A DNA stretch of 38,425 bases, from positions 1-38,425 of the IMG/VR virus record IMGVR_UViG_3300032335_001346; one strand, 5' to 3'. Below, piece after piece: positions 2 to 38,421 of this stretch. This DNA is from a virus. Its lineage: Duplodnaviria; Caudoviricetes. Under the pieces are notes generated by a model. The model ran no database searches, was not told the origin of the DNA, and saw only the letters and a program-made list of their open reading frames with translations. How positions within the stretch are numbered: position 1 is the stretch's first letter; the number at the start of each line of letters is the position of its first letter. The position numbers and the translations under genes were made by a program.

Positions 2-199
2 CCAGCTATAATTTTTTGGAATGTTAATGGAATAATTAAAAACATACCTGCAACAATTAATGATAATAATGTTGCTTTAGTATCTGGAGCATCTCCATCA
101 ATTTTAAAATCTGTTTTAAAAGGAAGAGTATTTCCTATTGAAACTTTATTGAATACAATAAATGTTGAAAGATACAAAATAATAGAAAACAAATTTTAA
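2..199 (+). CDS. C-terminal 65 aa (5'-truncated) of a DUF2828-family, Ro60/TROVE-related vWA-domain protein
   Basis: My translation of frame 2: PAIIFWNVNGIIKNIPATINDNNVALVSGASPSILKSVLKGRVFPIETLLNTINVERYKIIENKF*. The pattern P-x-I-x-FWN...P...VALVSG-x-SPS...P...L...ERY matches the DUF2828 C-terminus as I recall it. Absent from the ORF track because no start codon is in the window. Confidence 0.82.
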   Translation, partial: PAIIFWNVNGIIKNIPATINDNNVALVSGASPSILKSVLKGRVFPIETLLNTINVERYKIIENKF

Positions 200-209
200 A
201 TATTTAAAT

Positions 210-340
210 GGCTAGTGTTGTGGGTGAGTGGCTTAAATCACCTAAAGGGAGGTATTAGCCCTGTAAGTTGTCGGCAACAGTGCTCATCGCTACTACTAAG
301 ATTACGCTGTTCGCAGGTTCGAATCCTGCCAACACTAGCT
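210..340 (+). ncRNA. tRNA-like RNA with extended acceptor stem and enlarged central region, no encoded CCA
   Basis: GCTAGTGTTG (211-220) pairs with CAACACTAGC (330-339). Ser/Leu/Tyr-type D arm TGGGTGAGTGGCTTAAATCACC (221-242). Canonical T arm GCAGG-TTCGAAT-CCTGC (313-329). About 70 nt lie between the D and T arms with no canonical anticodon stem. Confidence 0.75.
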
Positions 341-350
341 TTATAAATAT

Positions 351-597
351 TTAACTCGGCACGGGTAAAGATGAGTGCAGAACTACGACTTGCATAATTG
401 CGAAAGCAATGAGTGAAATAACACTAAGTCAGGCTGATCAAGTGTAATGGCAAGCAACACGATCGGCGGCTTCTCAATAAGCGGCAGCAGTAAATTGAGG
501 CGGGCTTCTAGATTACCGCTTAGTAGCTAGAATATGAGTTAGTCTTTCTTGAACAAAAAGGCATCTCAAGACAGTTAGCCTTCTGTAAAAAGGCACT
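351..597 (+). ncRNA. Unclassified highly structured ncRNA
   Basis: GC-enriched non-coding stretch with consecutive stems: 387-392/425-430 enclosing an ATTGC-GAAA-GCAAT GNRA hairpin; 433-439/461-467; 472-478/494-500; 506-516/523-532; 547-552/566-571; 578-582/590-594. TAAGCGG (478-484) is complementary to CCGCTTA (516-522). Confidence 0.68.
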
Positions 598-38241: not shown

Positions 38242-38270
38242 TTGACAATTAATTTAACCAGTATTATCAT
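38242..38270 (+). promoter_or_regulatory. Strong sigma70-type promoter
   Basis: TTGACA (38242-38247), 17 nt, TATCAT (38265-38270); A-rich UP-like region upstream. Confidence 0.8.
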
Positions 38271-38305: not shown

Positions 38306-38421
38306 AATAGGCTAACAGCAAAAATTTTGCATTGGGAGCATCAGGGGAAGGTTAGAGTCCTTCAACCGCCTTTATTGGTGGTTAAGCTCTAGGATTATCG
38401 GAGCGGATTAAAATGCCTATT
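38306..38421 (+). ncRNA. Y-RNA-like (YrlA architecture) circularly permuted tRNA mimic
   Basis: Closing stem AATAGGC/GCCTATT; T arm GAAGG-TTAGAGT-CCTTC; loop-closed 7-bp acceptor AACCGCC-TTTATT-GGTGGTT; D arm GCTC...GAGC; ATC/GAT anticodon-stem stub. Confidence 0.75.

Follow-up and report, generated by a model that had tools for sequence, protein, structure and literature searches.

Non-decoding look-alikes of transfer RNA (tRNA) have been known in phages since T4, and a function is known for none of them. Phage T4 makes two such RNAs, species 1 and species 2, which we take from the older T4 literature to be stable and produced together with its tRNAs. The gene for species 1 RNA (rnaC, NC_000866.4 70908-71046) is annotated as "small, stable RNA; species 1 RNA" and lies right after the T4 tRNAs. 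A second group comprises the YrlA-type Y RNAs of bacteria and phages, which mimic tRNA; as described by Chen et al. (2014, PMC4201824), YrlA is permuted, with a T arm, a sealed acceptor-like hairpin and a D arm, and ends in a Ro-binding stem. Here we describe element X, a tRNA-shaped RNA encoded in the virus record IMGVR_UViG_3300032335_001346 ("the window" denotes this whole stretch of 38,425 bases). By examining its fold, its homologues and the array modules that share its closing stem, we conclude, with a probability of roughly 0.55, that positions 211-339 encode a conserved non-decoding small RNA built on a tRNA scaffold, in kind like T4 species 1 RNA. A search of the literature on phage tRNA-like decoys and T4 stable RNAs yielded no paper on element X, and PMC2330249 is silent on the stable RNAs of T4.

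The features of element X and its surroundings are collected in Table 1. A preliminary description had listed a T arm, a D arm, a closing stem of 10 base pairs (bp) with a G-U eleventh pair, a missing CCA and a gap of about 70 nucleotides (nt) between the two arms, together with several small stems and a CTGTAA at 261-266; all of these are present, with the one correction that the closing stem has the last base of its 3' strand at 339 and not at 340. That strand, CAACACUAGC, reads ...CACUAGC and then runs into UUU, with G210-U340 as a possible eleventh pair; because bases 340-342 are TTT, CCA is not encoded. U221 and G222 stand between the closing stem and the D arm, so placed that the equivalent of U8 is present. 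The D stem can be drawn with 3 bp (GGU/AUC) or with 4 bp (GGUG/CACC, reaching 242), and G230 and G231 of its loop are positioned as G18 and G19. The 70 nt that separate the D arm from the T arm (243-312) hold three other hairpins, the last of which, the long arm, stands 5 nt ahead of the T stem in the position of a variable arm. A stem ACAGUG/CGCUGU can also be traced at 277-282/305-310, and the long arm includes CUAAGAU (296-302), a sequence like an anticodon loop that reads CUGAGAC in the homologue L237. Folded without its flanks element X has a z score of -2.09; the stretch 192-360 folds at -51.9 kcal/mol (z -3.36), as well as which none of 200 shuffles fold, with 11 pairs added by the flanks.

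Table 1. Positions of element X, its parts and neighbouring features in the window
Feature	Positions	Strand	Details
Ro60-like gene, end	2-199	+	last 65 codons of a 461-aa protein; PHROG 850, E 2.7e-12
AU-rich spacer UUAAAUAUUUA	196-206	+	predicted pairing with 344-354, extending the closing helix to ~22 bp (minimum-free-energy fold of 192-360)
Element X, tRNA-shaped RNA	211-339	+	129 nt; 210-340 with the G-U pair counted
Closing (acceptor-like) stem, 5' strand GCUAGUGUUG	211-220	+	pairs with 330-339, 10 bp
D arm, class II (serine-tRNA type)	223-239	+	stem 223-225/237-239, loop GAGUGGCUUAA
Hairpin A, AGGG / AGGUAUUAG / CCCU	246-262	+	246-249/259-262, 4 bp, loop 8-9 nt, at the place of the anticodon arm
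Hairpin B, GUUG-UCGG-CAAC	267-278	+	
Long arm	280-307	+	two-part stem, 280-282/305-307 (outer) and 286-288/300-302 (inner); loop of 11 nt
T arm GCAGG-UUCGAAU-CCUGC	313-329	+	G313-G317 / 318-324 / C325-C329; UUCRANY loop with the G53-C61 pair
Module 3, next RNA-like module	355-595	+	in G+C island; conserved ends in 9 viral contigs
Sigma-70-like promoter TTGACA-17-TATCAT	38242-38270	+	11/12, best; consensus match only; corresponds to L002 1435-1463
YrlA-like leader RNA	38307-38420	+	stem AUAGGC/GCCUAU, handle UAACAGCAA, T-arm-like GAAGG-UUAGAGU-CCUUC

Homologues were sought by pattern scans over the whole IMG/VR collection, in which the pattern AGTGGYTNAA-N6-TAAAGGGAG gave 12 matches, 10 of them chance sequences resembling ribosome-binding sites, and TGGCTAGTGTTGTG gave 119 loci, only 10 of them real. 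Elements of the X type lie in four contigs besides the window and make up three sequence variants, the window's included: the near-identical L002/L216, L237/L189/L317 (125 nt) and L266/L368 (128 nt, two contigs). Over 130 aligned columns L266 agrees with the window in 114 (88%) and L237 in 101 (78%). When a 32-pair model comprising the closing stem, the 3-bp D stem, hairpins A and B, the two-part long arm and the T stem was laid over the three variants, 94.8% of its 96 cells were standard pairs, as against 31-52% when the 3' partners were slid by 1-3 columns. Five pairs are preserved through changes on both sides (a number reached by 11 of 500 shuffles), and the covariation score is 0.271 (reached by 4 of 500). 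The closing stem is identical in all three homologues. Among the three pairs of the D stem there is one two-sided change (G-U to C-G) and one one-sided change, and among the four pairs of hairpin A one compensatory change (G-C to A-U in L266), with a loop almost conserved in all three; in the long arm two outer pairs and one inner pair are preserved by two-sided changes (the inner AUC/GAU becomes GUC/GAC in L237), and the closing pair of the T stem is G-U in L237. The weakest of the helices is hairpin B (75% of cells paired), which a G-U pair keeps in L266 and which is lost in L237.

No reading frame is open throughout all three homologues; a 43-codon frame at 215-346, considered as a small protein gene, runs into stops in L266. 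The preliminary description had argued against random decay, and the three variants, their compensatory changes and the lack of a shared open frame bear this out: the comparison supports the view that element X is conserved and would function at the RNA level. A covariance model (R1) built from the window element and its two homologues scores its own three sequences at 136-154 bits, the window at 152.8 bits over 211-339. As a separate observation, hairpin A holds a strong Shine-Dalgarno-like AAGGGAGG (window 245-252, with GGGAGG in the loop; AAAGGAG in L266); all three homologues have this piece, and downstream of it neither a start codon nor a frame is conserved.

Element X is not recognised as a tRNA. 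ARAGORN in default mode calls no tRNA or transfer-messenger RNA (tmRNA) gene anywhere in the window, element X included, and Rfam at its gathering score has no match there; at E<=10 over 150-650 only the T arm scores, at 7.3 bits to tmRNA, with the tRNA model below that, and the tRNA model gives no match for L237 either. The preliminary description had suggested a tRNA mimic and had named known tRNAs and Rfam families as the check; neither program returns one, and with its conserved fold the mimic remains the apt term. Element X lacks an anticodon arm of 5-bp stem and 7-nt loop: the candidate loops have no proper stem and differ among tools and homologues. Where a tRNA would have a 7-bp acceptor stem, a discriminator and an encoded CCA, it has 10 bp and then UUU; CCA is encoded in 14 of the 15 distinct ARAGORN-called tRNAs of related arrays, the exception being a dubious call within module 3. 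R1 aligns the serine tRNA of phage T4 at 39.4 bits, the D arms being UGGCAGAGUGGUUUAAUGCACC (T4) and UGGcuGAGuGGcUUAAagCAcC (model). Judged from sequence, element X is probably a descendant of a class II tRNA and not a decoder. A string of the T arm plus stem and a two-part stem pattern had no matches in bacterial and archaeal genomes of 185,579 species, and therefore no host tRNA or prophage source is found at the level of exact matches; with 150-650 as the query, blastn hit none of 50,697 phage records.

The closing stem is not confined to elements of the X type, as in related phages at least seven other interiors are closed by it. The frame GCUAGUGUUGUG...CAACACUAGC with the UG that follows its 5' strand occurs in eight distinct sequences of 125-189 nt with differing interiors, and a ninth (L383, 142 nt) ends in CAACGCUAGC; of the nine, seven fall outside the X type. 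In L254 the stem has a one-sided change from U-A to U-G (CAACGCUAGC), and in L243/L248 a covarying stem, GCUAAUGGAAC/GUUCCAUUAGC, closes with 11 bp around a 41-nt interior, so that a 63-nt hairpin fills the slot. Some frame relatives have a D arm like that of leucine tRNA and, in place of the T arm, a 6-7-bp hairpin with the loop UGNAAGU. In contigs of other runs the match to the window breaks off at 222/223 (in one at 241) and resumes at 313-330, with 29, 92, 118 or 141 foreign letters between. In the relatives the slot lies after tRNA genes with a promoter-like site ahead; the L237 homologue is downstream of tRNA-Met and tRNA-Asn, and that of L266/L368 follows tRNA-Ser behind a strong promoter-like site. 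A spacer, AAAUCGU(A/G)AAUAUUUAAAU(G), separates all tRNAs and RNA modules of these phages. The neighbouring modules differ completely among the X homologues, and element X is retained as a unit in different arrays. Such reuse of the frame in close phages looks like cassette exchange under selection. Apart from this, L288/L346 (131 nt) has the closing stem and T arm of element X around an interior that consists of a second T arm and then a D-arm-like piece; on these motifs it is a permuted tRNA nested within a tRNA frame.

We hypothesize that transcription starting at the promoter-like site (38242-38270) would yield a single RNA with the Ro60-like gene, element X and module 3, from which the tRNA-processing enzymes of the host would free element X, RNase P cutting on the 5' side and another nuclease on the 3' side, with RNase III perhaps acting on the extended stem of ~22 bp. 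The constant top, made up of the closing stem and T arm with the D arm completing the elbow, may serve recognition for processing and confer stability, and the function would reside in the replaced lower body, which would most likely bait or tether a tRNA-binding factor.

Several points weigh against this reading. There are three sequences only, the covariation among them is modest and the 10-bp stem is invariant. RNAalifold favours a pairing of GGCU (230-233) with AGCC (257-260), and because this alternative is kept in 3 of 3 sequences the D arm is unproven. A loop-like CU(A/G)AGA(U/C) stands exactly 10 nt 5' of the T stem in all three, so that some role related to decoding may remain. Between rnaC and element X there is no sequence homology (R1 13 bits, E 0.25). 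The tRNA array of the window is deduced from the relatives, whose slot and spacers it shares, since the window phage is without ordinary tRNA genes. Parts of the stretch occur in 20 runs, of which the four examined are contigs, and these are DNA or probably DNA, not transcripts; processing by RNase P, Z or III, stability and the bait role are steps that we infer.

One alternative takes its start from the gene upstream, which shares the strand of element X and whose stop codon, 11 nt ahead of it, is not separated from it by a terminator: element X might be a Y-RNA-like partner or substrate of the DUF2828 protein, tethering its ring to a tRNA-binding effector as is thought of YrlA for Rsr. The remainder of the Ro60-like gene lies in 1,259 bases that are missing where the window's end would join its start; the near-identical contig L002 spans this junction and supplies them. 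On the full protein taken from L002 Pfam finds DUF2828 and DUF7788, a TROVE plus vWA fold. A sequence search against PDB chains gave no match, and the AlphaFold model (predicted local distance difference test, pLDDT, 89.7) has Ro60/TROVE structures as its 13 best Foldseek PDB matches, including Xenopus Ro60 with RNA, Deinococcus Rsr and a Thermus phage Ro60. This predicted Ro60 fold, the tRNA mimicry of YrlA-type RNAs in bacteria and phages (PMC4201824) and the tRNA-like RNAs that frequently flank DUF2828 genes would favour a partnership.

Most of the comparative evidence goes the other way. The handle ACAGCAA, which is enriched beside DUF2828 genes, is absent from 211-339, and no stem followed by NNUNNCAGCAA is found there; the nearest handle-like string, GUUGUCGGCAA (267-277), is missing from L237. 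None of 160 other DUF2828 loci holds an element of the X type, their best R1 score being 35.8 bits, compared with 136-154 for true homologues, and the best matches being oversized tRNAs with handle-bearing inserts. A DUF2828 gene was found in none of five related phage genomes (96-100% complete) that share array modules, and in none of four further records, including a sixth relative 96% complete, in a search that did find a positive-control carrier; the L266/L368 records (12% and 46% complete) have no DUF2828 match, nor has the examined part of the L237 contig. In a contig of run X2 element X is unchanged with different DNA upstream of position 187. A Ro60/TROVE neighbour is thus present for the element of the window and not for its homologues or same-stem relatives; as these are without the DUF2828 gene, the Ro60-like cassette looks like an insertion into a pre-existing array of tRNAs and small RNAs. 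The phage, moreover, already carries a handle-bearing YrlA-like RNA. The link between element X and the Ro60-like gene is weak, and we regard the partnership as unlikely.

That YrlA-like RNA is the leader near the window's other end, in which ACAGCAA stands at 38315; a second handle hairpin, GAGGGGC-UAACAGCAA...GCCCCUC, lies in the gap just before the Ro60-like gene (L002:1619-1690 region). Element X, the Ro60-like gene and the YrlA-like RNA are predicted to form one operon. The leader shares 80% identity with its counterpart in L085, a 68%-identical relative, and part of the L085 leader matches the Rfam YrlA model at 36.3 bits (E 5.7e-5), short of the gathering score of 69. Scans with the single protein returned only the near-identical contig among viral contigs and none among metagenome contigs, and the DUF2828 relatives were obtained by alignment-based scans. 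Across 161 DUF2828 loci ACAGCAA was counted 224 times on the strand of the gene and 32 times on the opposite one, where ~36 per strand are expected. The handle, which adjoins a short stem on its 5' strand, agrees with the conserved positions that PMC7919456 reports for the 11-nt motif in Class I RNAs of Dictyostelium, a motif that its authors call unique to dictyostelids; the Rfam Class I model scores hairpins of L086 at 28 and 26 bits, below threshold. Among the papers that a search for DUF2828 returned, judged by titles and abstract openings, none deals with RNA partners.

The tRNA-like RNAs that often flank DUF2828 loci are themselves oversized: in 20 loci, 31 of the 36 Rfam tRNA matches are 114-124 nt long, with inserts of ~50 nt. 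Arrays of such tRNAs stand upstream of DUF2828 in L031, L033, L046, L048, L050 and L053 and also in L054, L061, L063, L066, L068 and L078. They score 43-53 bits with the Rfam tRNA model, and ARAGORN in default mode misses them. Their inserts lie in or beside the anticodon stem-loop and have the form AUG-hairpin-CUAACAGCAA, and in some of the bodies an anticodon can be read, such as GCC where a Gly-like acceptor ends in UCCA, or UUU/GUU within a single body.

A second alternative, which we also hold to be improbable, is that element X is a mere element of processing or punctuation, at which RNase P/Z or RNase III would cut so as to end the Ro60-like mRNA and free the next module, the excised piece having no task of its own; the preliminary description had likewise mentioned an RNase P/Z processing signal, which is possible. 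The predicted helix of ~22 bp formed by the closing stem and the spacers would suit such cleavage, stem and spacers bound each array module regardless of its interior, and in L243/L248 the slot holds just the short hairpin described above. The pairing of the spacers, however, is perhaps incidental because the spacer sequence is self-complementary, an intact D arm and elbow are unnecessary for a cutting signal, and the interior, with hairpin A and the long arm, is compensatorily kept at 78-88% identity while the neighbours are wholly different. If element X were merely a processing signal, it would still explain the maturation of these small-RNA arrays.

Less probable again is a working tRNA, oversized or intron-bearing, of the serine type by its D arm or of the leucine type by CUAAGAU/CUGAGAC, charged after addition of CCA. 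Element X has intact elbow bases, U8 and a canonical T loop, A337 follows the stem if this is read as 7 bp, and a well-formed 7-nt C-U-NAG-A-Y loop precedes the T stem by 10 nt in all three homologues. This candidate loop, however, has only two adjacent base pairs and competes with the inner stem that bears a compensatory change. An intron-bearing tRNA, one of the readings offered by the preliminary description, fares no better: with introns allowed and the normal threshold ARAGORN calls L237 and L266 and nothing in the window; at the lowered threshold the anticodons for the three homologues are ACT, ATT and CAT, which disagree, and the "intron" falls at a non-canonical place between the D arm and the rest. 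We therefore rejected the intron-bearing tRNA as a candidate. Neither the window nor L237 is picked up by the Rfam tRNA model, which gives 43-53 bits to the tRNAs with 50-nt inserts elsewhere; there is no CCA, and the stem has 10 bp rather than 7. We know of no bacterial splicing route for such inserts.

Two other candidates were set aside. Against a tmRNA, ARAGORN -m finds none, G3-U70 is absent (the third stem pair is U-A) and no tag frame is kept; the Rfam tmRNA scores of 7.3-11.4 bits are limited to the T arm. A frame for Ala-His-Arg-Tyr-Tyr-stop (282-299), spotted by eye, is not kept in the homologues. Least credible of all is a decaying, functionless tRNA pseudogene, for although element X has no tRNA score and its anticodon arm is unrecognisable, its T arm and stem are perfect, 94.8% of the modelled pairs are kept in the three variants, five of them by two-sided changes, and it is retained as a unit across array contexts.

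The window has a CheckV completeness of 97% and a G+C content of 27%, and its structural genes (tail tubular proteins, internal virion proteins and the major head protein) are of podovirus type: the window phage is a podovirus. Bases 200-600 form a G+C island (0.39-0.46) at whose start element X lies, with a G+C content of 0.42-0.46 against 0.27 genome-wide. Module 3, in the same island, begins with CUCGGCACGGGUAAAGAUGAGUGC, a hairpin GCAC/GUGC that covaries to GCCU/AGGC in relatives, and ends with AGUUAGCCUUCUGUAAAAAGGC, a 5-bp hairpin with the loop CUGUAAA, which is like a tyrosine anticodon loop and was also scored as terminator-like. Its interiors vary across the nine contigs, with T arms in some, and it matches no Rfam family. 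The viral contig L207 has, at a match spanning its positions 601-699, a tRNA-like gene that bears a handle insert, UGAUUAGGUAUAAUCA-CUAACAGCAA; in the stem-loop after this gene the 7-nt loop is CUCUAAA, in which CUA would be the anticodon of an amber suppressor. In the window itself, within the frame 1021-1314, bases 1050-1300 have ~60% G+C and an AT skew of 0.9, very unlike the remaining genome; they are probably a low-complexity coding repeat.

With element X read as a non-decoding tRNA-scaffold RNA, a wider and tentative proposal concerns its relatives. A small group of aquatic podoviruses might possess a natural "tRNA scaffold", with the stem GCUAGUGUUG and the T arm as a constant frame for processing and stability and with unrelated cargos, exchanged between phages as cassettes, that would bait or inhibit host tRNA-targeting defences or tRNA enzymes; some arrays would then have recruited a Ro60-like ring with a Y-type RNA to act on these RNAs. 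The cargos in such a scheme are tRNA-Ser-like bodies, nested permuted tRNA pieces and interiors of 100-150 nt. Engineered tRNA scaffolds, mascRNA and the tRNA-miRNA units of herpesviruses use a constant frame of acceptor and T arm for processing and stability, with a foreign RNA in the place of the anticodon arm. The scaffold idea is common to them and to element X; those systems are engineered or eukaryotic, and processing and stability would apply to element X by analogy.

Among natural RNAs, the serine tRNA of T4 (class II) shares with element X a nearly identical D arm (UGGCxGAGUGGyUUAAxGCACC), the T arm and a long arm in the variable position; unlike it, element X has hairpin A and another hairpin in place of the anticodon arm, a 10-bp stem and no CCA. 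YrlA (RF02553) and element X both have T and D arms and no decoding anticodon arm, and in the window phage element X has a Ro60-type gene alongside, as YrlA does, whereas element X differs in its D-then-T order, the open ends at its acceptor-like stem and the lack of a Ro-binding motif, and no YrlA or Y_RNA model matches 150-650 at E<=10. With the ACAGCAA-handle RNAs, which recall the Dictyostelium Class I RNAs (PMC7919456), element X shares a neighbourhood in the window phage; the handle RNAs also carry tRNA pieces, and element X is without a handle and has its own conserved stem instead. The T4 species 1 and species 2 (rnaD) RNAs are, like element X, phage small RNAs among tRNA genes, and rnaC has in common with it a canonical T arm (9 nt from the rnaC 3' end), a terminal stem, an oversized interior and the absence of an anticodon arm. 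Unlike the T4 RNAs, element X has a stem common to swappable interiors and follows a Ro60-like gene in the window phage. The terminal stem of rnaC is imperfect, whereas element X has a perfect 10-bp stem together with a full D arm and elbow; with its intact elbow, replaced anticodon arm and compensatory conservation it is an unusually clean look-alike.

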